DNA of 64,000 nucleotides from an uncultured Planctomycetaceae bacterium. Its GTDB lineage: Bacteria; Planctomycetota; Planctomycetia; Pirellulales; JAEUIK01. Below are positions 2,854-44,676 of the stretch, piece after piece. The stretch is taken from positions 11,323-75,322 of the forward strand of contig CAZBWM010000012.1 in NCBI GenBank assembly GCA_964495375.1, in the 5' to 3' direction. Position 1 is the stretch's first letter; the number at the start of each line of letters is the position of its first letter. Both the position numbers and the translations under genes were made by a program. The notes under the pieces are model-generated. The model did no database searches and was not told the DNA's origin. It saw only the letters and a list, made by a program, of their open reading frames with translations.

Positions 2854-3957
2854 ATGACATCCACACTCGTCGCCGATCGCTTCACGCCTGCAGGGCTCGA
2901 GCGCGTCTGGCAATTGCTCGCCGACGCCGTGGCCACCGATCGCACGCCGGCAGTGTCGGTCGTGGTTGGCAGCTCGAGCGGTGCGAGCGAGCAGCGCTCG
3001 TTCGGTCGGCATCGCGCCGCGCCGGAGAGCCCGCCGCTGCGGAGCGACGCGCTGTTCTTGATCGCCAGCCCGACCAAGCCGATCGTGGCGATGGCGGTGA
3101 TGATGCTGGTCGAGGAAGGGCGCTTGCAGTTGGCCGACCCCGTGTCGACCTACGTGCCCGAGTTCCATTCCAACGGCAAGCGCAATATCACGCTGCTGCA
3201 CTGCCTGACGCACACGTCAGGGTTGCCTGACATGTTGCCCGACAACGCGCGGCTGCGAGGCGCGCAGGCTCCGCTCTCGGAGTTTCTCGCCCGGGCGTGC
3301 GAGCTGAAGCCCGACTTCCTCCCCGGCTTCGACGTGCAGTATCAAAGCCTGGGTTATCTGCTGTTGGGCGAAGTGGTGCGGCGCGTCTCAGGGCGGAGCG
3401 TGGCCGACGTGCTCGCCGAGCGGGTGTTCACACCGTTAGGGATGAAAAACACCTCGCTGGGGCTCGACGGCCAGTACGAGCGCATCCCCGAAATCCGGGT
3501 CAGCGGCGTGCAACTTTCGGGGGCTTCGTACTGGAACGAGCCGTACTGGCGGCGGCTCGGCGTGCCCTGGGGAGGGCTGTTTTCCGACGCGGCCGACCTG
3601 GGAAAATTGTGCCGGCATTTGCTCAACATCCACCGCGGCGCGGCGGGCGTGATCAATCGCGGGACGCTCGAAATCATGACCGCCAACTGGTTCGAGCGGA
3701 TGCCCGACGTGCCCGAACGGCATCGCCGCTGTTTCCCATGGGGGCTCGGCTGGCAGTTGCATTGGCCTGCGCACGCGACGACGTTTGGCGATTTGTTGTC
3801 GCACTCGGCCTACGGCCATTGGGGCTCGACGGGCACGATGCTGTGGATCGATCCGGCGCGCGACGCGTTCGCGGTGGCGCTGTCGACCGAGCCGTTGGAG
3901 CTGGGGCGGCGCTGGCTGGCGCGGTTCTCCAGCGCCGTATGCGCAGCGATCGCCTGA
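2854..3957 (+). CDS. serine hydrolase / class C beta-lactamase-related protein
   Basis: ORF 2824..3957 (TTG at 2824, first ATG at 2854). SxxK motif in LFLIASPTKPIVAMAV, YQSLGYLLLG, and HWGSTGT near the C-terminus. Confidence 0.8.
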   Translation: MTSTLVADRFTPAGLERVWQLLADAVATDRTPAVSVVVGSSSGASEQRSFGRHRAAPESPPLRSDALFLIASPTKPIVAMAVMMLVEEGRLQLADPVSTYVPEFHSNGKRNITLLHCLTHTSGLPDMLPDNARLRGAQAPLSEFLARACELKPDFLPGFDVQYQSLGYLLLGEVVRRVSGRSVADVLAERVFTPLGMKNTSLGLDGQYERIPEIRVSGVQLSGASYWNEPYWRRLGVPWGGLFSDAADLGKLCRHLLNIHRGAAGVINRGTLEIMTANWFERMPDVPERHRRCFPWGLGWQLHWPAHATTFGDLLSHSAYGHWGSTGTMLWIDPARDAFAVALSTEPLELGRRWLARFSSAVCAAIA

Positions 3958-4603
3958 GTGCGGGGCACTCCGCAGGCAGATTTTTTCTGACGCGCGCTGC
4001 GATTTCCTGGCGCGTCCCATACTAAATGGCTAGCACAGTTTGTTCGCGCCACGGACGGCTTGCGAGCGCGGGGTGACGGCAATCGGGTGATCGATCGCGT
4101 GCGATCTTGTGCTTGCGCATCGCATGATTCGCGCTTGCGCGACGCGCCTTGATAAACAGCGCGCGACGAATGCGCATTTCTCCTATGAACCGATTGCGCG
4201 ATTGCGATCGCAGTGCGCGAGCTACAGAATCGCGCGCCGAGGGTCAAAAAAATTTTCAAAAAAGTTGCGCGCCAAACGGCGAAATTCTGTTGCACTATTT
4301 CTGATAATTCGTACAACTACCACTAAGAGTGGAAAGCGCAGTATGCCATCGCGCTTCGCACGGATGAGTGACGCGAGTGTTCAACGAGTGACGCTGTACT
4401 TCGAAATGTGCCGTGTCAACGAAGTGAAGACGAAACGTTGCGAGTCGAAGCGAATCGGCCAACGCAAACTAGAGCTGGCCACTCGGAAGTAACGAAGGAC
4501 GCGTTTTAGTCAGAGGTGAGTATCGCCGATCGTTGAGCCTCGAGAGTGTTCTCAAGCGACGATTCGGTCGAAGGTCACCACGACACTTTTTAGGAGAAGA
4601 CCT

Positions 4604-4690
4604 GTGGCAAAGAAGAAGAAGGCCGCCGCGAAGAAGGGTGCGACCAAGAAGAAGGCTGCCAAGAAGAAGACCGCGAAGAAGAAGAAGTAG
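4604..4690 (+). CDS. 28-aa lysine/alanine-rich basic micro-protein (histone H1-like / polycationic)
   Basis: AGGAGA at 4593-4598, 5 nt before GTG 4604. Translates as (M)AKKKKAAAKKGATKKKAAKKKTAKKKK*, all Lys as AAG (the GC-preferred codon). The competing frames give poly-Arg from rare AGA/AGG or poly-Leu. A strong terminator lies 124 nt downstream. Confidence 0.4.
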   Translation: MAKKKKAAAKKGATKKKAAKKKTAKKKK

Positions 4691-4813
4691 CCTTCGTGGC
4701 GGTCGCCCGGTAATGACCGCGTCAACCTCGCCTAAAGAGTCGCCTTCGGGCCGCTCACGGCGCACGGTGGCCGAACGCGGTTGCTACCTGCGATCCACTG
4801 GCCACAACGAGAA

Positions 4814-4855
4814 AGAACCGCCCGCCATCTCATTTGGCGGGCGGTTCTATTTTTG
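4814..4855 (+). terminator. rho-independent terminator
   Basis: agaaccgcccgcc (4814-4826) / ggcgggcggttct (4836-4848), a perfect 13-bp stem with a 9-nt loop, followed by atttttg. Confidence 0.65.
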
Positions 4856-5036
4856 CGCCCCCGGACGGGCGACAGACAGCTTCCGCAACATAATCCCAGG
4901 GTGTTGCCGGGCCGGGATTTAGAAGAAATCGGCCAAATTGTTTGACGGGGGCCCTGGCGTCCGCTAGCTGAAATTCCCCCCGGCTGTCTCCCGGGGGACA
5001 CCGCGGGACTCGCGGAACTCTGGCAACTCACTACGA

Positions 5037-6113
5037 CTACAGTACTGGCAACGGTACCGACGGCGGGGCCTGTTTGTTCCGACTACTGATTCCTTTGACG
5101 AGCCGATAGCAAAGCGATTCGAGATACGGCGCGCAGGCCGGGTCGTCGAAACTCGCGCCGACGCGACCTTCATCGCCGTTGATGCGCATCGCCATGTTGA
5201 TCGGCACTTCGCCCAAGAAGGGAACGTCGAGCTCCGCGGCCTGCCGCGCCGCGCCGCCCGATCCGAAGATGTCGTAGCGCTTGCCGCAGTCGGGGCAGAG
5301 AAAGTAACTCATGTTTTCGACCATGCCCAGCAGCGGGATGTTCACCTTGCGGAACATGGCGATCGCTTTGACGGCGTCGATCAGCGCGACATCCTGCGGC
5401 GTGCAGACCACGACCGCGCCGGTCAACGGCAACAACTGCGATAGCGTCAGCACGATGTCGCCGGTGCCAGGTGGCAAGTCGATGAACAGATAGTCGAGCT
5501 GCCCCCAATCGGTGTCGCGCAAGAACTGGGTTATGGCGCCGTGCAACATTGGGCCGCGCCACACGACGGCGTCTCCCGGCGGCACCAGGAACCCCATCGA
5601 CATTACCTTGACATCGTCGACCACGATCGGCTGGATCTTCTGATTGACGATCTCGGGGCGACGGTTGACGCCGATCAAGTGCGGAACGCTCGGCCCATAG
5701 ACGTCGGCATCCATTAGGCCGACGGAGCAGCCGGCGCGACGCAGGCCGTAAGCCAGGCTGGCGGCAATGGTGCTCTTGCCGACGCCTCCCTTGCCCGAGC
5801 CAACAGCGATCACGCTTTTGGCGGCCAGGCCGATCTCACCAAGACGTTCGCCGGGCCGATTGTGCGTGGCCAACTCGACCTGCACTTCGGCGCCGGGGAA
5901 TTGCCGCTGGAGTCGATCGACGAGCTCGGCGCGAGCTTCCTTCCAGAGTGGGGCCGAGTGCGTGGTCAGCGCCAAGGTGAGCGCAATGCGCCGGCCGGCG
6001 ACTTCGACGTCGCGAATCTGCTCGAGCTTCACGGCGCTACGGCCCGTTTCCGGATCTTGAAAATCGTCTAGCAACCGCTGGACGTCGGCCCGATTGATGT
6101 TCATGTCGCCCAT
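5037..6113 (-). CDS. apbC: Mrp/ApbC/NBP35-family Fe-S cluster carrier ATPase
   Basis: Deviant Walker A SGKGGVGKSTIAASLA, CPDCGKRYDIFG (CxxC), N-terminal DUF59-like segment. ORF 5037..6131 begins with TTG; the first ATG is at 6113 and the next at 6104. Confidence 0.85.
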   Translation of the reverse strand: MGDMNINRADVQRLLDDFQDPETGRSAVKLEQIRDVEVAGRRIALTLALTTHSAPLWKEARAELVDRLQRQFPGAEVQVELATHNRPGERLGEIGLAAKSVIAVGSGKGGVGKSTIAASLAYGLRRAGCSVGLMDADVYGPSVPHLIGVNRRPEIVNQKIQPIVVDDVKVMSMGFLVPPGDAVVWRGPMLHGAITQFLRDTDWGQLDYLFIDLPPGTGDIVLTLSQLLPLTGAVVVCTPQDVALIDAVKAIAMFRKVNIPLLGMVENMSYFLCPDCGKRYDIFGSGGAARQAAELDVPFLGEVPINMAMRINGDEGRVGASFDDPACAPYLESLCYRLVKGISSRNKQAPPSVPLPVL

Positions 6114-6203
6114 TTCGATATAAGCCTTCAACTCTCGGATGAAAATGCGGTGCTTGAAATTCTAACGTAAGGTTGCGGGCCGTCGGTCAGGTTCCAGATG
6201 GCG

Positions 6204-6725
6204 CTATGACTCGACTCCCCAAGGAAGCGCCGTGCGGATCGATTGTTCCCAGCCACCCGGCGGCACGTCCAACTTCTGGCACACTCGTTCAAACCACTCG
6301 ACCAAGGGAGGCAACTCCCGCACCGACCAGGCACAACCGGCGGCCCCTGCCCAGCGGGCCGATGCTTCCGCCGATCGCACGGCCCTCGAGCCGACGGCGA
6401 ACAACAACCCGCAGGGCCAACGCGTCGCCAGTTGGGAAATCGCCCGGCAGGCCGAAACCTGGTTGGGTACGACGATCTCCAACAGTACAGCGGCTGGTTG
6501 CCAGCGTTCAATCGCGGCGCCAAGTTCGTCGACTTGCCGCACGGATCGAATAACTGCGCGTGAACTGTCCTGGTCAGTTGTCTGCACCGCGGAGGTCCGG
6601 AGCTTCCCCGGCGTTCGGTCGAGCCGCGACTGCCAGGTTCGCCAGGCCAGGCGCCAGCGATCGGATTGTTCGCAGACGACGAGGGTGGGCGTCACGACGC
6701 TCATGGCAGGGTCTTGCTGGCTCAT
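6204..6725 (-). CDS. hypothetical protein, possible degenerate receiver (REC-like) domain
   Basis: ATG at 6725, only 6 nt after the stop of the upstream regulator gene. Alternating beta/alpha-like pattern (TLVVCEQSD.., AAVLLEIVVP.., GLLFAVG..) without a canonical phospho-acceptor Asp. Confidence 0.45.
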   Translation of the reverse strand: MSQQDPAMSVVTPTLVVCEQSDRWRLAWRTWQSRLDRTPGKLRTSAVQTTDQDSSRAVIRSVRQVDELGAAIERWQPAAVLLEIVVPNQVSACRAISQLATRWPCGLLFAVGSRAVRSAEASARWAGAAGCAWSVRELPPLVEWFERVCQKLDVPPGGWEQSIRTALPWGVES

Positions 6726-8651: not shown

Positions 8652-8742
8652 AGGAATGGCTTGAGAGTTGTGGGTAGTCCCGTTAGCCGCGGGACTTGTC
8701 CCGCGCGCTAGCTGGTATAACGCTGATATTTCACAGCTCAGC

Positions 8743-11700
8743 TTATTCCAACCCGAAGGCGCCGGCGACGGGGACTCGCATGCCGCGGGCCCGGCTGGTC
8801 GGCAGGAAGCGTGGTTCGACCATCAGTGTCGCACCGACGTTGTTCTTGCTGGCGTCGACCGTCACGCCCAGGCTCATCAAGAACGACTCGCCGACGCGGG
8901 TCAGCGTGAAGTTCTGGCCGATGTTGCGGCCGCGCAGGTCGAGCGAGGTGCCGGCCGACGACAGCCACTTCGGGCTCAGTAGATAGCTATACGAGGCGGT
9001 GAGCACGTCGGCATCGAAGGCTTGCAAGGCACCCGGCACATTCGGTCCGCGCAGCATGCGGAGGCCGACATACAAATTGCCGCGCGGCGGGCGGGTCAGG
9101 AAGCCACCGATCGACACGAGCTGCTGCCCTTGCGTGAAGAAGTCGAAGATGCCGTCAGACACCAGGCTGAAGCGATCCCCCAGGTTCCAGCGCCAGTCGT
9201 AGTTCAACAGACCGAACGGCTCGCCGAAGTTGTCGCGGCCGGGGTTCGGGTACCAGACCACGTCGGCGTCCAAGAGCATCCAGTCGATGATCCGCCGCTG
9301 GCCGGGCAGGCCGCGTTTGGTTTGCAAGCGCTGGTGCAACCCGAAGCGGCCGGCGGCGATCGTGTCGGCGATTTCCAGGCTGGGGCTGGTGACGTTGCTC
9401 GCCAGACCGTAGCGCACGGCGTATAGCCGCTCGTCAAACTGTGGCGGAATGAAGAACGGTGATGCGGGGTTCACCGCCGCGGGCGGAATGTCGAACGTGG
9501 TGTCGATGAAGCGCCGGCGGAAGAGCAGGATATTGTTGTCGTCGATCCGTTCGTACAGCGGCAACTCGGTCACGTCCTGGCTGCTGTCGGCCACGGAGAA
9601 ATCGGTCTCGAACGAAAGCTTGTGCGCCAGACCGTGAACGTTGAACAACGTGCTCTCGACGTTGGGGTTCGAGTTCCAGAAGGGGAGCGCGGCCCGCACG
9701 CCTGCCTGGCCGTACAGCCGGTTGAAGTTCGACTGATTGAGCGAGGCTCCCCAGTGCGCGGCTTCGCCCAAACCATAGGGGACGACCTTGACGGGCCCAA
9801 GGTTCAGCGGCAGGTCGATCTCTTGGCGCGAGATGAGGCGCTCGCCGCGGCGTGGCTCTTCCCAAGGGAGGGTGTGCCACTGGTCGGCGTCGTTGGGGTC
9901 GGTGGGTGGGGCCGAGATGCGTAGCTGGCCGTAGGCCGCGGTCGAGTGTTCATACCAGGTGAGCCAGTCACCCAACAGCGGCTGGCCAAGCCAGTAGTGG
10001 TCGACTTTCGGCAGCCAGTTAGGTTCGGTGAAGAACGGATTGACGCGGACGTCGGTCTCGAGGTTCAGCGAGCGGTTGTTGCGCAGCCGCTTGAGCTCCA
10101 GGCCGGTCGACTCGTCTTTGAATTCGTCCCATTCCTTCTCGTAATACTGTTCAAGGAAGTTGAAGTCGCTGATGTAGCCCGCTTCGCCGGTCAACTGCCA
10201 ATCCCCGAAGAGAATCTGCCGGTGCCGCAGCAGGGCCCGACCGCGCTCGGGGTGCGGGAAGGTAATCGTGCGGCGATTCAGACCAAGGTTGTCGATCCCC
10301 TTGTCGTAGATACCCCAGACGTCGATCAAGCCCGACGAGGGACCAGGCAGGCCGAACAAGTTCTGGCGGTTATAGAAGAACGACGTGCCGCCGGCCGGGC
10401 CGCGCTCGCTGAAGTAGTCGCCGTTCAACAACCACTCAGTTCCCTCTGGCTTGTTACGGATGCCGAGCATCTGGTAGCCGTCGAAACTGGTGAGCAACTG
10501 AGTGCCAAAGATGCGGTCGTTGCGGAATAGGATTCTCTTCAGGTAGTAGCTCGGCTCGGTCAGGTCGGTGGCCAAGGTGGGCCAGTAGAAGACCGGCACG
10601 GGGCCGAGGAAGGCAACGTTATTGCGACTCGTGGCCAGCCGCTGGTGTTCGACCATCGGCTCCCCGGTCTCGGGATTGAGCATCACGGCGCCGCTGGCCG
10701 GATCGACCAACGGGCGCTGCAGGTCTTCGACCACGATCTGGCCAGCCTGCAAGCGATAACCGGGCGAGGCCAGACGGCTTGAGGTCAAATAGCTTTGCTC
10801 GGCGACGAAGCGGTCGCGGCCGGTGATCTTCAGAATCTCCGACTTGAGCTTGAGCATGCCGGCGTACTCGGGCACCGGAGTGAGCAGTTCGGCCTTGATG
10901 ACCACACCGTGCTCATTGGGCACGTTGTAGTACATGCGATCGGCGTAGACGACGCGGTCTCCCTCGCGGAAGACGATGTTCCCTTCGACGTACAGCTCGA
11001 GCGGCACATCGTCGGACTGCAGTGTCTCGGCTAGCAGGTTTGGTTCGGCCGCGCCGACGGTCCAAACCACGACGCGATCGGCCGCGATGTCGAGTACGCC
11101 GACGCCCGGCAGCCCATCGATCAACACGCGGACGCCGTTGTCGATGGTGCCGATCCACTCGGTCCCCGTCGAGCTGGGGAACCACTTGATCCGCATCGGC
11201 ACGGTGCTGCGCGGGGAGATCCGCACGCGACGCGGCGTGTTCGGCGGGGCGCCACCAGCCAGCGGCACTGCAGGGCCGGGGCCGGGCGGCGGGGCGGCGG
11301 TTGGCGCGGGGGGAATGCCCGGGGGACCAGGCCCTGGCGTAACGATGTCGCCGCCAGCCCGCATGTCATCGACAGCGGGGAGCGGCATCGCACCGCTGGG
11401 GGAGGGGCCCGTTACCGGCATCGGCGGTTCGGCACTCGGCTGACTGAACTGCGCTTGCTTGATTCCCTTCCAGGGCTTCGGCGTGCGACGCGCGTAACCG
11501 CGCAGATAGACCGGCGGCTTCTGCTCGGGCTCGACCCGCGGCGGTGGCGTATCGAAGCGCAACGTGCGCGACGACACGAACTCGCCGAGCCAACTGGCCG
11601 ATTTAACCTCGGCGCGCCCCTCGCTGTCGACGAACTCGATCGCGACGTGCCCTTCGAGATAAGTGATCACACGGCTGAAGCGCTGGCCGCTGGGCCCTTC

Positions 11701-25965: not shown

Positions 25966-26975
25966 CGTCGAACTTAGCGCTGGTGACCGTCGATCAACTG
26001 GTGCGCGACACGTTTCGGCAGTCGCGCGCGCAAGGGGTCTTTTGGCTGCTGTTGGGGATCTCGGCGGTCTGCATCCTGCTGTGCGCCAGCGTGAGCATCG
26101 ATGGGGCCGTGCAGTTGGCCGGGCCGGGCGAAAACCCCGACTTTCTGCCGCGCACCGAAGCGCAGGCCCACGACAAAGAGATCCTCAAGCGCGACGGCGT
26201 GGCCGTTGTCGGCGGCGACCTGTCGCTTGGCTTTGGGGCCGTGCGGGTGCCGCTGGCGCGCGACGCGAAACATGCCGTCCACGCGCTGCAATTGGCGCTG
26301 GCCTCGGGCGTGGCCGACACGCTCGGCGTGCTCTTGGCATTGGTGTGGACCGCTGGGTTTCTGCCTGGCTTCTTGGATCGGCAATCGATCAGCGTGTTGC
26401 TGGCCAAACCGGCGCCGCGCTGGGCGCTGCTCTTGGGCAAGTACGCCGGCGTGCTGGCCTTCGTGCTGTTTCAAGGAGCGATCTTCGTCGGTGGCACCTG
26501 GTTGGCGCTCGGCGCACGCACCGGCATCTGGGATTTTGCCTACTTGAAAAGTGCTCCGTTGTTGCTGTTGCACTTTGGGATTTTCTTTAGCGTTTCGTTG
26601 TTGTTGGCGGTCTGCACGCGTAGCACCGTGGCGAGCGTGTTCGGCTCGATCGCGTTCTGGCTGATGTGCTGGGGAATGAACTTCGGCCGGCACGCCTTGG
26701 TGGCTGACGTGGCCGCCGGCAGCGGCGCCGAGTTCGGCCAACCGCTGTTGGGCATCGTCGAGTTCGGTTACTGGTTCCTACCGAAGCCGGCCGACCTGGG
26801 GATCTTGGTCCGCGACGCGCTCAAAGCACAAGACTTCTACAGCCAGCCGGCCGCCTTCGACTTCGTGCAAGCGCACGGGCAGTTCCACCCTGTGTGGTCA
26901 GTGGCCGCCTCGCTGGCGTTCATGCTGTTGATCTTCTGGGCAGCCGTGCGGCAGTTCGTGGCGACAGACTACTGA
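25962..26975 (+). CDS. ABC-2-type transporter permease
   Basis: ATGA overlap with the ATPase gene. About 6 hydrophobic segments with a large first extracytoplasmic loop. Confidence 0.7.
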   Translation: MTSNLALVTVDQLVRDTFRQSRAQGVFWLLLGISAVCILLCASVSIDGAVQLAGPGENPDFLPRTEAQAHDKEILKRDGVAVVGGDLSLGFGAVRVPLARDAKHAVHALQLALASGVADTLGVLLALVWTAGFLPGFLDRQSISVLLAKPAPRWALLLGKYAGVLAFVLFQGAIFVGGTWLALGARTGIWDFAYLKSAPLLLLHFGIFFSVSLLLAVCTRSTVASVFGSIAFWLMCWGMNFGRHALVADVAAGSGAEFGQPLLGIVEFGYWFLPKPADLGILVRDALKAQDFYSQPAAFDFVQAHGQFHPVWSVAASLAFMLLIFWAAVRQFVATDY

Positions 26976-27230
26976 GTAGTGGCTAGTGCTCAGTGGTTAG
27001 TGGTTCGAGAACACCACTCCACTGCTCAACTGATATCCTGCTCACCTTCTCGCCGGCAGGGCGCACCCCTCTTCTATAAAGTGTTCCGGGATTTTGCGTC
27101 CTAACCGTCCTAAGCCCGACAAAACAGCACCTAAAGCCTTGCCAGGTTAGCACTTGACCTTAGGACGCAAAACCGAAAAAGCTTGCGTCCTAAACCGTCC
27201 TAAGAGGGCCGTTTTGCGTCCTAAGCCTGA
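26976..27230. repeat. intergenic element B: array of TTGCGTCC-TAA(G) repeats, paralogous to 17921-18215
   Basis: TTGCGTCCTAA 27094-27104 followed by CCGTCCTAAG 27105-27114. Inverted copy cttaggacgcaaaac 27159-27173. TTGCGTCCTAAA 27183-27194 followed by CCGTCCTAAG 27195-27204. gttttgcgtcctaag 27211-27225. ACTCCACTGCTC at 27016-27027. Confidence 0.7.
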
Positions 27231-27259
27231 ATCGCGAAGCCTTGGACGATGAAGATTTT

Positions 27260-27336
27260 GACCACGGATGACACCGATCGCACGGATGGTTGAATTCGTG
27301 TTCCGTTCATCCGTGTGATCCGTGACATCCATGGTC
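27260..27336. repeat. imperfect palindromic 'CACGGATG' hairpin element
   Basis: gaccacggatgacaccgatcgcacggatgg versus the reverse complement of ccgttcatccgtgtgatccgtgacatccatggtc. Arms are roughly 80% complementary. Confidence 0.5.
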
Positions 27337-27708
27337 AACGTGGTCTTGGTTTTTGATTCGCGCGGCGAGTCGTGCTTAGCGCTTGGTCATCGTGGTGTCG
27401 TTGTGGTGACTCTCGATGCGGCGCATGTTCTGGCGGCGCGCAAAATGCCAATGCATCCACAGAAGAACACGCCGAAGGACACAGAAGTTCGATCGGTGAT
27501 GCCGTTGGGCGTGGCCACGATCGTTCTGTGATCGTCTGCGCCTTCTGCTGATGTATTCTGTAATTGTTGGCGCGCACGGCGAGCGGGCTCGCGCCAAGCC
27601 GACCCCTTGAACGCATGCGTGCGTGGGCTCCTTGGTGGCAAGTATTTGATTGCAGTCCGCGGCGCGCACCGTATGCGCACGCGGAATTGACTCGCGTCCC
27701 CTTTCGTG

Positions 27709-27790
27709 CCGACGGTGTCAGGAACCACCTCCGACGACGTGCAAGGCACTGGATCGTCGTAGGCTCGGCGGTTCCAGACACCGATTCCGG
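27709..27790. repeat. degenerate 4th copy of the GGTGTCAGGAACCG palindromic element
   Basis: Left arm gccgacggtgtcaggaacca, right arm cggttccagacaccgattccgg. One stem mismatch (A where the other copies have T). Confidence 0.5.
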
Positions 27791-27930
27791 AGCGACTCGC
27801 GTGCCCGGCGCGCATCGCTGGTTTTCGCCGCGTAGCGGCGACGTCGACTTCGAGATCGCCGTGAACTCGCGACCACACAGCAGCGACAATGTCGCCACTG
27901 CGCGGCTTGGTCTTCGCTGAACGTCGAGTG

Positions 27931-37859: not shown

Positions 37860-39977
37860 TTACGGCCGGGTGCGGCGGCGCGACGATTTGCGCTTCGGGC
37901 GGTAGCCGGGGCCTGGCTTCGACTGATTAGCCCGATCGCCGAGGCGATTGTTCGGCATTTCTTCGGTGGCCGGCCGCGCCTCGCGATTGGCTTCTGCCCG
38001 GCGAGCGGCGAGCGCCTCCTTTGGTGGTTGCGAGGGGATCAAGCTGTCGCAGTCGTCGCCGATCAGGTCTTGCCGGCCGGCGGCCTCTAAGGCGCGGCGC
38101 ACCTCGAAGTAGTTCTCCGGTTTGAAGAATTGCAACAGCGCTCGCTGCAGCTTGCGGTCGCGCAAATTGCGGGCGACGTAGACGGGCTCGAGCGTGAAAG
38201 GATCGAGGCCCGTATGGTACATCGTGGCCGCGATATCCAACGGACTGGGGATGAAGTCTTGCACCTGGTCGGGGCGGTAGCCGTTCTGTTTGAGGAACAC
38301 GGCCAGGTCGATCATCGCCTCGAGCGTGCTGGCCGGATGGCTGGCAATGTAATAGGGAACCAGGAACTGCTCTTTGCCGGCCGCGCGGCTCTCACGCGTG
38401 AAGGCTTCGTCGAACTTGGTGAAGTCGTCGCCGCCAGGCTTCTTCATCGCCGAGAGGACGTCTTCATCGGTGTGTTCGGGAGCGACCTTCAGGTGACCAC
38501 CGACGTGATGTTGGGCCAGCTCGCGGATGTACTCGGGGCTGCGATGGGCCAGGTCCATGCGGATGCCTGACGCGACGAAGACCTTCTTGATGCCCGGTTG
38601 CGAACGGGCTTTCTTCATCAGCTTGATGAGCGGCCCATGATCGGTCCCCAGCAGCTTGCAGATCTTGGGGTGCACACAGCTTAGCCGGCGGCAGACTTTT
38701 TCGACTTCCGGCTGGGAACAGCGCATCTGGTACATGTTGGCGGTCGGTCCGCCGATGTCGCTGACGACCCCGGTGAATTTCGGGTCTTCGCCGAGGCGGT
38801 TGATTTCGGCCAGCACCGATTGCTGCGAGCGGCTCTGAATGATCCGCCCTTCGTGCGTGGTGATCGAACAGAATGTGCAGCCGCCAAAGCAGCCCCGCAT
38901 GATCTGCACCGAATGTTTGACGACGTCGTAGGCGGGAATCCGCTGCTTACCGTACATGGGGTGCGGGCGGCGCGTGAAGGGCAGGCCGTAGAGGTAATCC
39001 ATCTCGGGCTGCGTGAGCGGCAGCGCCGGGGGATTGGCGACCACCGCCTCGCGATCGTGATACTGCACCAGGCGGCGCGCGTTGTGCGGGTTGGTCTCCA
39101 TGTGGATGGTGCGGGTCGCGCGGCAGAAGGCCAGCTTGTCGGCGACGACCTCTTCGTAGCTGGGCATCGCGAGCGCGTCGGCCGGCGGCGTTTCTTTGGC
39201 GCCCATGCGATAGACGACGCCGCGCAGGTCGCGCAAGTCGCGGACCGTGGCGCCGGCGGCCAGGCGATCGGCGATCTGCACGATGCCGCGCTCGCCCATG
39301 CCGAAGGCGACGAGATCGGCCTTGGCGTCGAGAATGATCGCGCGGCGGACCTTGTCGCTCCAGTAGTCGTAATGGGCGAGACGCCGCAAGCTGGCTTCGA
39401 CTCCGCCGGCGATGATCGGCACACCAGAGTACGCCTCGCGAGCGCGTTGGCAGTAGGCCAACGTGGCGCGATCGGGGCGCAGGCCGATGCGGCCGCCCGG
39501 GCTGTACGCATCGTCGTTGCGCACTTTGCGGTTAGCCGTGTAGTGATTGATCATCGAGTCCATGTTGCCGGCGCTGATGCCGAAGAAGAGCCGCGGCCGG
39601 CCGAACGTGCGCCAGGCGTCGCAGTTGTGCCAATCGGGCTGGCTCAAGATGGCGACGCGGTAACCGCGGGCTTCGAGCAGTCGGCCCAACAGGGCCATCG
39701 CGAAACTGGGATGATCGACGTAGGCATCGCCCGTGACGAACACCACGTCGACGGCGTCCCAGCCGCGGGCATCCATTTCGGCGCGCGTGGCGGGGAGCGG
39801 CGCCGCCGCGCCGCGCGGGATGCGTGACGCGTTGAAATCGGCCGGAACAAGGCTGTCGGCCACGTCGACTGAGTTAACTGACGTTTGGGGGAGCGGCCCG
39901 CTCGGCGCGCAGTCGTCCGCCGGCCGATCGACAATCGGCAGCAGACTCGAACTGGTTTGCGCGGCGGGGTCGGTCAT
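37860..39977 (-). CDS. ygiQ: YgiQ-family (UPF0313) radical SAM protein
   Basis: [42 protein letters not shown]-terminal domain. [14 protein letters not shown] radical-SAM cluster motif. Basic C-terminal tail. Confidence 0.85.
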
Positions 39978-40249
39978 CTAGCTGCTTTCGTGAACGCTCG
40001 TGGCGAATGCGCGAGATTCCGCACGTGTGCCAGCTTGCCGGCGGGCGGACTCGGGAAGCCAAGTGCGGGCAATCGAACGCCGTAAGTGGCGAGACCTTCA
40101 TTCTATCGTGGACCGGCGACAAATCTCAGGCACAAAACCGGCGGAAATGGCTCCGCTTTTTGGGCGACGAGCTGAATCGGCGACTGGGCTATGCAGTTGC
40201 GTGAGGGGGAACAGCCGTGTGCGTGTCTCGTTTCGTCGCGGCGGCTAGA

Positions 40250-40507
40250 ATGGCGGGGATGGAAGAGAAGCCCCAAAGCCGCTGGTTCCGCTTCCGGCTG
40301 AGCACTTGGCTGGTCCTTTTGGCGTTGCTACCGGCTTACGCGGGAGGCGTAGTAAAGTCCCTGGGTACCGTTGCGATTGGTGGATCTAGGAACCTGACTC
40401 GTGGACCAATCGATGAGGGCTGGCTCACCGTTATCTTGGCCGTCTTCCTCGTCTGGAAAACCGCGTGGGCCGTGTTCGAGCGTCGACGCGCACGGTCGAC
40501 CGCGTGA
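40250..40507 (+). CDS. hypothetical small membrane protein
   Basis: ORF 40217..40507 (GTG) with ATG at 40250. FRFRLSTWLVLLALLPAYAGG and WLTVILAVFLVWKTAW are hydrophobic helices. Confidence 0.35.
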   Translation: MAGMEEKPQSRWFRFRLSTWLVLLALLPAYAGGVVKSLGTVAIGGSRNLTRGPIDEGWLTVILAVFLVWKTAWAVFERRRARSTA

Positions 40508-40517
40508 GAATAGAGGC

Positions 40518-40865
40518 ATGGACGAGAACCCGTACCGAGCGCCGGACATCGTGGAGCCAGCCGCTCGTTGTGGCCGCGCGTCGGCGATTTATGGGGTGCT
40601 GACATTCGGCGGCTTGCTGGCGTGCTTTTCGTCCTTGGGCCTGTTGGGGATTCTTCAGGCCTTGATTCAGAACGCGTGGATCGGCCACTCCAAGCCCCTG
40701 AATTTCGTCATTCTGTCCCTGAGCGCTCTCTCATTTCTGAGCGTGCTCGCCGCGGTACTCGGAAACGTCGCGTGGATCGCCGCGAAAGTCCTCGGCCGGC
40801 TACGCTGGCGGTCAAGATCGGCTGAGGGCGAAGTGAGAGGCAGATCGCGATTTCCAGTCGCATGA
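40518..40865 (+). CDS. hypothetical small membrane protein (N-terminal NPYRAP motif, two TM helices)
   Basis: ATG 40518 in ORF 40401..40865. MDENPYRAPD.., then IYGVLTFGGLLACFSSLGLLGIL and FVILSLSALSFLSVLAAVLG. Confidence 0.45.
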   Translation: MDENPYRAPDIVEPAARCGRASAIYGVLTFGGLLACFSSLGLLGILQALIQNAWIGHSKPLNFVILSLSALSFLSVLAAVLGNVAWIAAKVLGRLRWRSRSAEGEVRGRSRFPVA

Positions 40866-40897
40866 CTACGCACTGAATCGCGATGAGCGCCTCAGCG

Positions 40898-41503
40898 TCA
40901 CGCATCCCACAAATCGTCATCAGGACCACGTCTGCGAATCACGTTGGGTGAGACGACGAATTCGCGAGCAATTGACGTTTCGAGAGCGTCCCAAGCGGCT
41001 GGCTCAGCATTGTCCAGATGGATATCGAGGGCGGCGAGCTTGCGCTTGGCGACTTCAAACTGCTCGGCAAGTCGGATGGGAGGCACGAGCACTAAGCCTG
41101 CAAAGTAATTGGCGTGCCATTCAATGAACCCGTACTCTCGCTCCGAAATCTGTGCTCGCGCCGACTTCCACTGTGCGATTGTGGAAAACTGCAGTTGCCG
41201 AAATACGTCGGCGTGAAGCTCGCGATGCGCCAGCTCATGCGCCAAACTGAAGCGATAGCGATTCTCGCGCGACTCATAGACGTATTGGTCGACGCGAATC
41301 TCCGTTAGATCGCTCGTGATAAAAGCATCAATTCCAAAGCTGCCATGCAGCCCCGGCACAGGAACAATGTCCATGTGAAAGTTGGCTTCGATCATGCGCT
41401 CAATGGGCACCGGGATCGTTCGCGACGCGTGGTGCTCGTCAAGAAAGCGATCGGCGCGGGCGCGTAGATCACTCCGCGAGTAGGTTGGCGCCAGAATCGC
41501 CAT
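40898..41503 (-). CDS. ImmA/IrrE-family (COG2856) zinc metallopeptidase
   Basis: HEXXH in RFSLAHELAHRELH, plus the downstream E..H..Y (WHANYFAG) typical of the ImmA/IrrE family. Starts 1 nt after the XRE gene stop (TGAgATG). Confidence 0.8.
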   Translation of the reverse strand: MAILAPTYSRSDLRARADRFLDEHHASRTIPVPIERMIEANFHMDIVPVPGLHGSFGIDAFITSDLTEIRVDQYVYESRENRYRFSLAHELAHRELHADVFRQLQFSTIAQWKSARAQISEREYGFIEWHANYFAGLVLVPPIRLAEQFEVAKRKLAALDIHLDNAEPAAWDALETSIAREFVVSPNVIRRRGPDDDLWDA

Positions 41504-41504
41504 C

Positions 41505-41876
41505 TCATGTCTTCCGGATCAGGTCAATGAGCTCATCGAGCTGATCGGCGGCCACCGCCTTGCCCCGCAACGTGCGAAACAGCGCGGGCAATTTCGCTAG
41601 TAGCGCCTCATCCTCTTGCAAGTCGGGCGGAATTTGACCCGTTGCAGCGGACGCGAGATCGAACAACTCGAGCCAGTCGTCTGAGCCGGGACGCACACCA
41701 AGGGCCCGAAGGTACTTTTCCAACAACTCGCGTCTTTGTGGTGGCGGAAGAACGCCCCGCTCAAGGCGACTATAATTGCCAGGGTCGAACTTATTTTCCA
41801 GGCAGAAATCGCGCAGCGTCTTTCCGGTGCTGATCCGAATCTCTTTCAGCCGCGCGCCGAACGAATTTGATGCCAT
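41505..41876 (-). CDS. XRE-family helix-turn-helix transcriptional regulator
   Basis: ATG 41876 with RBS gggaggtg. FGARLKEIRISTGKTLRDFCLENKFDPGNYSRLERG is an HTH_3/XRE signature. Confidence 0.8.
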   Translation of the reverse strand: MASNSFGARLKEIRISTGKTLRDFCLENKFDPGNYSRLERGVLPPPQRRELLEKYLRALGVRPGSDDWLELFDLASAATGQIPPDLQEDEALLAKLPALFRTLRGKAVAADQLDELIDLIRKT

Positions 41877-41911
41877 CGTCGCACCTCCCTTCAATTCTCG
41901 TGATGCGAAGT

Positions 41912-41930
41912 GTTGTATTAATAATACAAC
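41912..41930. promoter_or_regulatory. perfect 9-1-9 palindrome, candidate operator of the XRE/ImmA operon
   Basis: GTTGTATTA-A-TAATACAAC, 36-54 nt upstream of the XRE start. AT-rich in a GC-rich genome. Confidence 0.5.
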
Positions 41931-42147
41931 GCGCTGGCCGGAAGTAAATGCCGCGGAATTGGGTAGTTTTCACGCAATGTCGCCACATGGACCCGCTGTC
42001 GCCCCCGGCGCAACGGCTGTCTATACTCGACAAGTCATGGGGCAACGGGGCCGGAGGAGGGGCCGGATCGAGGGTCACCGGCGAGGCCGGTTCGCGGACC
42101 AGCCGCCGTGCAGACAGGTTCGGCGCACGCACGAAGAGGGAACGCTA

Positions 42148-44676
42148 ATGCTGGCGTGGGGATTTCGATTTTCTGGCAATCCCGGCGCCCGCTCCGCGCC
42201 GGCTCGGCTCGGGGCGTTTCGTCGTGTCGCCGTACGGCCAATCTGGTGCCTGCTTGCGGGCCTGCTCGCTTTGCTGCTGTTCGCCGTCGCGCGACCGACC
42301 ACGGCTCAGATGACGATCCCCACGACCGGCGTGCTTCCCCCCGCGATGCCCACCCGGTCGCTGCTCTTGGGAAACCAGCTCACGCAACTGCGGGCCGATT
42401 GGGCCAGCCCAGTCAACGCCACGCAGCAGCTCTACATCAACAGCGTGAACGGCTTTGCCAATCGCGCGACGAGCGGGGCGGCCCCCACGACGCTGGCCAC
42501 GGCCGCCGCCGACGGCGCCACGGCCGAGAACGCCGGTTTACGCTACGCCATGACGGGAAATGCCGCCGACTTGAACAAGACGGTCGGCGCGCTGTTGGTC
42601 GCGGCCGTACCCAACCCAGGCTACTTGAACGATCAGAACGCATTCATCACGCGCCCCGAGATGGTGACCAACTATCTGATGGCGTACGACTTCATTCGAG
42701 GCGCGCCACTGGCAGATCTTCCCCAGGCCACGCGCACGCAGATTGAAACGCGGCTCGCCTCGCTGGCCGCGAGCCTTGACTACGGCAACGGCACCGACAG
42801 CAACGCGCGGGCGAAGATCGGCGGCACTGTGGCCCTGGCGGGTGAGATCCTTCGCAATCAGACGCTACTCAATCGCGGCCTGACCGATTTGCAGAAGAAT
42901 CTCAACTACAGTACCACCGATGATGGTTGGTACGCCGACGCCCCCTCCGGCTATCTCAATTACACGTTGCGGCATTTCGCCACATTCGTGCGGGCGTATG
43001 AGCAGGGCTCGGGGGTAAACCTTTACCCCAACTTGCAACCATTCGTCGAGATGACCAACGCTTTGCGATTACCTAATGGCGAAGTGCCCAACGTGGTCAA
43101 CGGTCTGAATCTACCGGTCGCTACGAGCCTGCTGACGAACAACCCCGACGCCCAGCAGGCCGGCCAGGCGCTGTGGTATTTGAACAATATCGCAACGCTG
43201 AATCCGCTCCCCTGGAATACCGAGACGAACGTCACCAACAACGACGGTTCGTTGGCGACGTTCTTCGCGCTGACGAACTTTCATGTCGCGCCGGTGGCAC
43301 CCGCGTCGCCAACCTATCTCGCGCAGGGTCAAAGCCACGTCACCGTGCTGCGGCAGGATTTTGGCCCCACGAGCGACTACTTGTTGTTGTCGGCCGGCAT
43401 CGATCCGCCGGCGACGGTGCTGAGCTTTCCCGGAGATCCGCCGGAAAACTACATCATTCCGGCTTATCATTCGCATGCCGACACGGGCGAGATTCTGGTG
43501 GCCTCGGGCGGGCAATACTTACTCGTGGCGCCGGGCTACGATCGCACCGACTACTCGAACGCGCCGCCGGGCTTCGCGCCGCAGAGCGCCGACTGGCACA
43601 ACGTGGTGCTCGTCGACGGGGGACTGGGGATCAAGCCCGACAATTTCGCCTTCACGAGCGAAGGGCTGGCGATGCGCCCGGGCGATTTCACGAGCACGCA
43701 TCGGCTCGACAGCGGCGAGTTCGGCAGCCATCACGGCGTGTCCGATTTCTCGACGCTCAGGATGAACTACGCCCAGACCGACGTGTCACGGAGTGTCGGA
43801 CTGGCGAACGAAGATTATTTCGTCGTGGCCGATCGCATGCAGGGGACCCAGAGCCATGCCTACGGATTCAATCTCGTCGGCCTGGGGACACAGACGGTGC
43901 TCACCGACACGCCCGACCTGGTCGAAGTGCAGTGGGAGCAGAACGGGCAGCGGGTGATTCAGCATCTGGTGTCGACGCACGCCATGTCGCTGACGACCGC
44001 TGCGCTGGCCATGCACGACACTTACAACCAGTTCGTCACCACGCAGCGGATGACGGCCACGATCGAGGCCACGGCCGGGCAGTTCTTGAGCATTCTGGAA
44101 ACGGGTCCGGCCGGCGGCCCCGCACAACTGGCGATTACCGATCTTTCGACCAGCACACTGGCCGCGGCCGAAGTGCTCAATGCTGGCGCAGGTTGGACCG
44201 ACACGATCCTCTCGCAGCGCAACACGCAGTTGGCGCTGGCCGGCGATTTGTTGAGCGACGGGCAGTACGCCTACGTGCGACAAAGCGGCGGCACGGTCGC
44301 CAGCGCGATGCTGGCAGCCGGCACGCGGATTGACTTTGCCGGTCACACCCTCTTGCGCACCACCTCGGCGCTCACCATGTCGGCCGCCTTCGAGAGCGAT
44401 AGCGTATTGGGCACCATCTCGGCCGATGAATTTGTGAGCGGAACGGAGTTGCATTTGTTCGGCCGCACGATCGGCTCGGCGACGCTCAACGGCGCGCCGT
44501 TGGCCTTTTTGAACGGGCCAGAGTTTGACGTGGTCTATGTGACCGGACCTGGCGATCTCGTTGTGACGTATCTCGCGGTGCCGGAGCCGAGTGGGCTGAT
44601 GCTGGGAGTGATCGGCGCGCTGAGTGTGGTGGGCATGCAGGTGCGGCGGCGAAGCAGTCTCGCGGCTACGCACTAG
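42148..44676 (+). CDS. heparinase II/III (alginate-lyase-like) family protein with C-terminal PEP-CTERM anchor
   Basis: ATG 42148 within ORF 41776..44676. Signal/TM LLAGLLALLLFAVARPTTA. AYHSHADTGEILVASGGQYLLVAPGY..DWHNVVLVDG (heparinase II/III C-domain pattern). C-terminus VPEPSGLMLGVIGALSVVGMQVRRR. Confidence 0.65.
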   Translation: MLAWGFRFSGNPGARSAPARLGAFRRVAVRPIWCLLAGLLALLLFAVARPTTAQMTIPTTGVLPPAMPTRSLLLGNQLTQLRADWASPVNATQQLYINSVNGFANRATSGAAPTTLATAAADGATAENAGLRYAMTGNAADLNKTVGALLVAAVPNPGYLNDQNAFITRPEMVTNYLMAYDFIRGAPLADLPQATRTQIETRLASLAASLDYGNGTDSNARAKIGGTVALAGEILRNQTLLNRGLTDLQKNLNYSTTDDGWYADAPSGYLNYTLRHFATFVRAYEQGSGVNLYPNLQPFVEMTNALRLPNGEVPNVVNGLNLPVATSLLTNNPDAQQAGQALWYLNNIATLNPLPWNTETNVTNNDGSLATFFALTNFHVAPVAPASPTYLAQGQSHVTVLRQDFGPTSDYLLLSAGIDPPATVLSFPGDPPENYIIPAYHSHADTGEILVASGGQYLLVAPGYDRTDYSNAPPGFAPQSADWHNVVLVDGGLGIKPDNFAFTSEGLAMRPGDFTSTHRLDSGEFGSHHGVSDFSTLRMNYAQTDVSRSVGLANEDYFVVADRMQGTQSHAYGFNLVGLGTQTVLTDTPDLVEVQWEQNGQRVIQHLVSTHAMSLTTAALAMHDTYNQFVTTQRMTATIEATAGQFLSILETGPAGGPAQLAITDLSTSTLAAAEVLNAGAGWTDTILSQRNTQLALAGDLLSDGQYAYVRQSGGTVASAMLAAGTRIDFAGHTLLRTTSALTMSAAFESDSVLGTISADEFVSGTELHLFGRTIGSATLNGAPLAFLNGPEFDVVYVTGPGDLVVTYLAVPEPSGLMLGVIGALSVVGMQVRRRSSLAATH

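Follow-up and report, generated by a model that had tools for sequence, protein, structure and literature searches.

The closest described counterparts of the locus examined here are three pairs of a repressor and an M78 metallopeptidase, namely ImmR/ImmA of Bacillus subtilis ICEBs1, CapH/CapP, and DdrO/IrrE (PprI) of Deinococcus, alongside the predicted toxin-antitoxin-like Xre-COG2856 pairs. ImmR/ImmA are encoded in one autoregulated operon, repressor gene first and peptidase gene second, and reside in and control an integrative element. CapH/CapP are regulators of cyclic-oligonucleotide-based antiphage signalling systems (CBASS) and other defence operons (bioRxiv 10.1101/2022.04.27.489752; 10.64898/2026.05.16.725639). 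The C-terminal GAF domain of CapP forms a groove that binds single-stranded DNA (ssDNA), the protein has a cysteine switch, both features being reported to take part in ssDNA sensing, and CapH is cut at F82/R83 (bioRxiv 10.64898/2026.05.16.725639). In DdrO the cut is made at L106/R107, within the loop that joins the last two helices; the last dimerisation helix is lost and dimerisation is abolished (PMC6868357). In every biochemically studied M78/XRE pair the peptidase acts on the partner repressor and not on host proteins (PMC6868357; bioRxiv 10.1101/2022.04.27.489752). Here we describe an XRE/ImmA pair in a 64,000-nt stretch of contig CAZBWM010000012.1 (assembly GCA_964495375.1) from an uncultured Planctomycetaceae bacterium, referred to below as the window, and compare it with these systems.

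We consider it reasonably probable that the pair is a horizontally acquired cassette of an XRE repressor and an M78 metallopeptidase, autorepressed and acting as a stress-triggered switch of the ImmR/ImmA, CapH/CapP or DdrO/IrrE kind, and present here as an orphan that controls itself. We posit that it works like these three systems and do not assign it to any one of them. As far as the available sequence goes, the only promoter under the control of the window cassette seems to be its own.

A recently inserted two-gene unit

The XRE gene and the ImmA gene occupy the positions that an earlier note, made from the sequence alone, had given them (Table 1), and the 1-nt gap it described between them is borne out by a junction that reads TGA-g-ATG. 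The two genes are adjacent, co-oriented and placed behind an operator-bearing promoter, which is the layout of ImmR/ImmA. Within the inserted DNA, directly 3' of the ImmA stop, a stem-loop follows which is likely a terminator, though it lacks a U-tract.

The XRE/ImmA segment is a discrete, cleanly bounded recent insertion. A relative with about 84% DNA identity (L212) is colinear with window positions 39833-40823, covering the ygiQ start and the small open reading frames (ORFs) sm1 and sm2, and the match resumes at 41996 on the side of a heparinase-like gene; between these two anchors lie 23 nt in L212 versus 1172 nt in the window. The right border falls between ~41980 and 41995, where similarity to L212 is weak. 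The segment is also missing at the same site from L210 (YgiQ 93% identical) and from L211 (88%; Pirellulales GCA_019745975.1), in both of which the heparinase-like gene is directly divergent from ygiQ across a spacer of ~320 bp without XRE, ImmA, sm1 or sm2. No terminal inverted repeat or target-site duplication was found at the insertion borders. The sm2 ORF stops with TAA exactly at the junction in L212 and runs 14 codons into the cassette in the window, from which it follows that the cassette landed on the sm2 end; the same difference favours an insertion in the lineage of the window over a precise deletion in L212.

Composition points the same way as the three empty sites, and the horizontal acquisition proposed in the earlier note is supported by both. 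The GC content of the module is 57.0% compared with a window mean of 63.9%, and across the window only 0.7% of module-sized windows (standard deviation 2.4 GC points) are as low. GC content at third codon positions (GC3) is 0.62-0.65 in the cassette genes versus 0.79-0.83 in neighbouring genes. The contrast had originally been drawn with a value of 78% for a dehydrogenase gene, which turned out to come from one unrepresentative 60-nt line, neighbouring 400-nt windows having 0.62-0.69. Family-wide, the pair is poorer in GC than its flanking DNA at 54 of 62 loci (median difference -5.4 points), and its GC content tracks that of the host (r = 0.85); this low yet host-tracking pattern fits a repeatedly transferred accessory unit.

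A conserved operator overlapping the predicted promoter

Ahead of the XRE gene lies the palindrome GTTGTATTA-A-TAATACAAC, with arms of 9 nt, which is perfect as first described. The window holds five perfect 9-nt palindromes, so that the palindrome alone is not distinctive; we judge this one to be real because it is conserved in 77 homologous loci. In the 200 nt searched upstream of XRE the family consensus is TGTTGTA-N7-TACAACA. At least 11 of the 14 half-site positions match in all 78 loci examined and 13 or 14 in 67, and among the 77 loci that score at least 12/14 the spacer is 7 nt long in 72. Invariance reaches at least 95% at operator positions 2-7 and 16-20, and 70 of 77 loci have T at spacer position 11. 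A median of 32 nt separates the operator from the XRE start codon, and in many loci a second, tandem copy stands 20-30 nt off.

The operator also overlaps the probable promoter. A TAnnnT -10 box, composed of the last two bases of the left half-site and the first four spacer bases, lies within the operator in 91% of loci (TACAAT and TATAAT being the commonest forms), and a TTGACA-like -35 element is found about 17 nt upstream of the -10 across the family. The window copy has a sigma70-like promoter of this kind, followed by a putative Shine-Dalgarno sequence, GGGAGGTG. Judged by conservation across the family, the reading of the palindrome as a conserved operator that doubles as core promoter is strongly supported.

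With two or fewer mismatches allowed, the window has no site but that of the cassette, and in the family loci (716 kb) the motif with at most one mismatch occurs nowhere but upstream of XRE. Among the first 120 exact motif matches listed from metagenome contigs, 20 are directly beside an XRE homologue; the remaining listed matches, for the most part within coding sequence or on contigs of low GC, were taken as chance. A literature search for the operator sequence retrieved only primers and unrelated sequences. The motif scans of the window, the family loci and the metagenome contigs thus gave no convincing further sites that would speak for a dispersed regulon.

The repressor and the metallopeptidase

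With 29.6 bits for HTH_31, above the cut-off of 27, the repressor is placed in the XRE family. A helix-turn-helix (HTH) domain at residues 5-58 is followed by three C-terminal helices. In the AlphaFold2 model the predicted local distance difference test (pLDDT) exceeds 87 for residues 11-70, the C-terminal helices are less confident, and residues 103-106 form a low-confidence loop. With this model Foldseek returned generic HTH matches only (ClgR, C-proteins, SinR and the HTH of DdrO), and the low-confidence C-terminal domain had no Foldseek match, leaving a DdrO-like C-terminal fold unconfirmed. We found 437 homologues, the best of them ~58-67% identical over the full length, and an alignment of 32 sequences has a mean column identity of 64%. 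The motif K95-L-P-x-L-F100-R101-T-L103-R104-G is nearly invariant, and the flexible loop 103-106 falls inside it. On this pattern, and by analogy with the bonds cut in studied repressors, we infer that XRE might be cleaved at the hydrophobic-Arg bond F100/R101 or L103/R104. NCBIfam gives a weak match to the 'spr1629 family repressor/antitoxin'.

The peptidase belongs to family M78, with a PF06114 score of 33.9 bits against a cut-off of 22. Its HELAH motif covers residues 89-93, and H89, E90, H93 and E128 are invariant in 33 homologues out of 667 detectable ones, many of which are 45-66% identical over the full length. The protein is a single peptidase domain, without a GAF domain and without cysteine. 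Its AlphaFold2 model has a pLDDT of 95 and matches by Foldseek the peptidase domains of PprI, IrrE, CapP and an XRE-M78 regulator of M. tuberculosis, at template modelling scores of ~0.5-0.56 normalised to the query and 0.33-0.46 normalised to the targets of 240-330 residues. Profile searches recovered CapP at E = 7e-4 and IrrE at E = 0.1, and DdrO aligned over the HTH only. PADLOC gave weak matches to capP (3.8e-14, for ImmA) and capH (7.4e-5, for XRE) and none for sm1 or sm2; these matches and the domains support the identification of the pair as an XRE/ImmA switch module.

Table 1. Positions of the cassette, its parts and the two adjoining small ORFs, numbered from the first letter of the window
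Feature	Position	Strand	Remarks
Inserted cassette, ~1.16 kb	40824..~41980	-	promoter/operator, XRE, ImmA and 3' hairpin; complete transcription unit
XRE-family repressor, 123 aa	41505..41876	-	Pfam HTH_31, 9e-7
M78/COG2856 (ImmA/IrrE-type) zinc metallopeptidase, 201 aa	40898..41503	-	Peptidase_M78 PF06114, 3e-8
Operator TGTTGTA-TTAATAA-TACAACg	41911..41931		21-bp site; perfect palindromic core 41912-41930
Sigma70-like promoter (predicted)	41921..41948	-	-35 TTTACT (41948-41943), 16-nt spacer, -10 TATTAT (41926-41921) within operator
Shine-Dalgarno (read from sequence)	41882..41889	-	5 nt upstream of XRE ATG
Stem-loop	40834..40894	-	inverted repeat; RNA fold -29.8 kcal/mol, z = -2.3
sm1	40217..40507	+	two hydrophobic segments; neighbour older than cassette
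sm2	40518..40865	+	two hydrophobic segments; older neighbour; last 14 codons (40824-40865) from cassette DNA

Distribution of the family

The family was sought by exact peptide patterns in 185,579 species genomes, one genome per species; the scan gave 233 confirmed stretches, a count that depends on those patterns, and 80 loci were returned, with operators and neighbours analysed over ~12 kb around each homologue. In 78 of these 80 loci, spread over at least six phyla, the peptidase gene comes immediately after XRE, with a gap of -7 to +17 nt for most. Going by record titles, Planctomycetota (including Brocadia, Scalindua and Kuenenia) contribute 48 loci, Nitrospirota 10, Methylomirabilota 6, Gemmatimonadota and Acidobacteriota 3 each, and other groups a few.

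Two loci in Isosphaeraceae differ in that XRE is divergent from an additional gene of 230-268 aa, without a Pfam match, which is followed by the peptidase gene; the operator lies between (L071 3124-5119; L074 1835-3819; including cultured Aquisphaera insulae JC669). The metagenome-assembled genome LejiaA_56_15 has two cassette copies on different contigs (L031, L061), and its Paceibacterota label looks doubtful at 59% GC. Two copies appear to be decaying, one with XRE and a BstA-like gene fragmented (L026 ~5500-6525) and one with an ImmA match that stops at residue 131 (L041 6001-6393).

All-against-all BLAST of the ORFs of the 80 loci revealed no conserved neighbour beyond XRE and ImmA except a cluster of BstA-like genes in five loci. 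Neighbour orientation is random (upstream 36 divergent versus 35 co-directional, downstream 40 versus 28), and housekeeping genes (RtcB, PGK, NadA and chorismate synthase among them) make up most of the neighbours. Some 15% of family members adjoin BstA-like, DISARM (defence island system associated with restriction-modification) or type IIG restriction genes, and most have no recognisable cargo. A BstA-like Bro-N protein of ~277 aa is encoded divergently 97-128 nt upstream in L012, L015, L026, L041, L068 and probably L022, and in L084 the corresponding upstream place is taken by two genes, Bro-N and BstA_C (8668-9396). L030 encodes a DrmMI-like methylase (1495 aa) on the strand of the pair, 24 nt downstream of it; in L078 DrmA is found upstream; and L058 and L069 each have a type IIG enzyme of 1057 aa downstream, with a convergent one in L057. 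The pair also occurs, with tandem operators, on a contig that carries phage terminase, portal and head protease genes.

Two of these arrangements have further features. The BstA-like gene stands head-to-head with XRE-ImmA across a common operator-bearing spacer (e.g. L012 837-1667, and L015, L041 and L068 at 97-123 nt from XRE), an arrangement that could be a regulated abortive-infection unit. The phage contig (L330 9703-10800; IMGVR_UViG_3300044673_000561) additionally has a ParB-like gene, and a weaker third site just past the ImmA end.

Comparison with described pairs

The gene order and autoregulated layout of ImmR/ImmA recur here, and the window ImmA is closer in plan to the short ImmA than to CapP. 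Unlike ImmR/ImmA, the window pair has no adjacent integrase, excisionase or conjugation genes and forms a lone 1.16-kb cassette; the earlier note had remarked that no integrase or phage genes are adjacent, none lies within ~10 kb, and residence in, or control of, an integrative element or prophage was not found. Sequence similarity to ImmR/ImmA is confined to the M78 and HTH cores.

CapH/CapP provide the best PADLOC matches and the best sequence match to a solved structure (7T5T). Part of the family shares the placement reported for CapH/CapP, upstream of a defence gene (BstA-like, DrmA) that is on the other strand, and a hydrophobic-Arg bond in the repressor C-terminal domain is plausible as cleavage site by analogy. 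Unlike CapP, the window ImmA has no GAF domain and no cysteine (hence no cysteine-switch loop). The window locus has no adjacent defence operon on the opposite strand; its divergent neighbour is the heparinase-like PEP-CTERM gene, which is present without the cassette in relatives.

DdrO/IrrE share with the pair an M78 peptidase and a repressor that appears similar in size and predicted architecture, of 123 aa here versus 129 aa in DdrO, with an HTH and a three-helix C-terminal domain (PMC6868357). They differ in that the genes are adjacent and mobile here, the operator differs from the radiation/desiccation response motif (RDRM), and no second motif was found in the window and family loci; IrrE also has extra HTH and GAF domains that the window ImmA lacks. 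The predicted Xre-COG2856 toxin-antitoxin-like pairs, represented by ZnMP/HTH-Xre of Brucella abortus, resemble the cassette in being stand-alone, autoregulated two-gene cassettes of patchy occurrence (PMC10538038). They are unlike it in that defence-gene neighbours in part of the present family point to a regulatory role.

Neighbouring genes in the window

The cassette is surrounded by a YgiQ radical-SAM gene, an Hsp20 gene, a heparinase-II/III-like PEP-CTERM gene and a GSDH/cytochrome c gene. Pirellulales is the annotation of the best matches to YgiQ, and the source genome is accordingly placed in that group. An Rfam scan of 39800-42300 gave no match, and no catalogued PADLOC defence effector or sensor gene was found at the locus.

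sm1 and sm2, two plus-strand ORFs convergent on ImmA, are real as ORFs and have no Pfam or NCBIfam match. In L212 sm2 encodes 102 aa, 87% identical, and its 50 nucleotide differences are distributed 11/3/36 by codon position (29 synonymous and 13 non-synonymous codon changes); because the differences are concentrated at the third position, sm2 is a real gene. A search of 1.84 billion representative proteins gave one true homologue of sm2, which is otherwise an orphan gene. For sm1 the amino acid identity is 70% and the differences are 21/10/23 (18 synonymous and 29 non-synonymous codon changes), and its status as a protein-coding gene is doubtful. Both are absent from all 80 other family loci. 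The earlier note had suggested that these membrane proteins could be cargo or effectors regulated by the switch. They are instead unrelated older bystanders: L212 has both of them but no cassette, their strand is opposite to that of XRE and ImmA, and no operator-like site is found close to where they start.

The sm1-sm2 segment (40109-40823) is itself a separate insertion/deletion difference, found in the window and L212 and absent from L210 and L211. A conserved anchor, GATAGAATGAA, at 40097-40108 resembles the ygiQ -10 region; the counterpart stretch in L210/L211 is 9680-10000. The heparinase II/III-like protein (42148-44676, 842 aa) ends in a PEP-CTERM-type sorting signal (VPEPSGLMLGVIGALSVVGMQVRRRS), and its gene is kept beside ygiQ in relatives. 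Two further stretches of the window are as GC-poor as the cassette (0.56-0.58), at ~3750-5200, with small ORFs without a Pfam match, and at ~26450-27900, which includes an ABC-2 transporter membrane gene.

Proposed switch and alternative explanations

In the mechanism that we favour, an XRE dimer would bind the 21-bp operator TGTTGTA-N7-TACAACA and, as the operator holds the -10 of the cassette's own sigma70-type promoter, would shut off the two-gene operon by negative autoregulation. A stress signal, most likely DNA damage or phage infection, would lead the co-translated ImmA to cleave XRE. A cut at either predicted bond would remove the last dimerisation helix and thereby derepress the promoter. 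We infer that the remainder of the genome likewise holds no trans targets. Given that in other genomes the cassette is joined to defence genes or carried by a phage, the window copy would be a portable switch of defence islands or mobile elements that stands here as an orphan, without cargo.

Several points weigh against this reading. The sequence similarity of the pair to studied pairs is weak, and ImmA lacks the GAF domain and the cysteine-switch loop by which CapP and IrrE reportedly sense ssDNA. It is not obvious what selective value a purely self-controlling switch would have, and yet most of the family is intact and its conservation is good; an output may therefore have escaped notice, be it trans targets or a further substrate of the peptidase. 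The operator scans covered 64 kb of the source genome and the stretches around each homologue.

The alternative that survives best is a toxin-antitoxin-like addiction module, with XRE as an autorepressing antitoxin and the peptidase as a toxin acting on host proteins; the cassette would persist and spread because the cell is harmed when it is lost. Xre-COG2856 pairs have been predicted to be toxin-antitoxin-related (PMC6868357), with one studied in Brucella, and the layout of the window pair is that of type II modules, the small DNA-binding gene coming first, the second gene 1 nt away, and a palindromic operator on the promoter. The cassette is alone in most loci, patchy among close relatives and mostly lower in GC than its host, and the weak NCBIfam match of XRE likewise names a repressor/antitoxin. 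Such a toxin would depart from the studied M78/XRE pairs introduced above, whose peptidases all target the partner repressor, and the family members beside defence genes occupy regulator-like positions. We consider an addiction module unlikely, although it retains some weight.

A further proposal, to which we give only a low probability, is that the cargo-less cassette is no regulatory remnant but a functional two-gene selfish or protective element, with a peptidase that has host or phage targets or a repressor that silences incoming phages or mobile elements bearing the same operator. If true, such a self-sufficient element would account for the spread of a 1.16-kb unit with an unchanged operator across at least six phyla and without a companion gene.

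Regulation or immunity in trans, in which XRE would repress operator-bearing promoters on incoming phages or mobile elements, or those of a defence system at another locus, seems quite improbable. The operator has been kept across phyla though the proteins are only 40-60% identical, it is tandem in many loci as in phage immunity regions, and tandem operators accompany the pair on one phage contig. That pair was, however, the only one among the first 120 exact motif matches listed from viral contigs; when IMG/VR was scanned with protein patterns, all matches were distant (24-34% identity) and none was a close relative, nothing matching the pair turned up in GenBank phages or PLSDB plasmids, and the window and the family loci contain no second site.

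We regard as very improbable a global stress or DNA-damage regulator with a dispersed chromosomal regulon, as in DdrO/IrrE. The strongly conserved operator and the apparent resemblance of XRE to DdrO would suit such a role, but the cassette is missing at the same site from all three relatives, has a foreign composition, was found in only 233 stretches of the species genomes scanned and has no extra sites in the window or family loci; a newly inserted regulator would, moreover, find no host operators. Finally, sm1 and sm2 as regulated cargo or effectors of the switch, suggested by their position next to the pair, their intermediate GC3 (0.70-0.72) and the evident constraint on sm2, can scarcely be maintained, being already contradicted by their presence without the cassette in L212, their absence from all other family loci, their opposite strand, the lack of an upstream operator and an insertion that both truncated and extended the sm2 3' end.

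Implications

The analysis defines a large, unstudied subfamily of repressor/metallopeptidase switches, with a precise operator and a predicted cleavage motif. Its hosts belong to phyla in which transcriptional control is almost unexplored, namely Planctomycetota (including anammox bacteria), Nitrospirota and Methylomirabilota. As the cassette occurs bare, beside BstA-like, DISARM or type IIG genes, or in a phage, it is a good system for studying how regulators of defence islands move between cargoes, and the same range of contexts is suited to asking whether XRE-M78 pairs act on their own.

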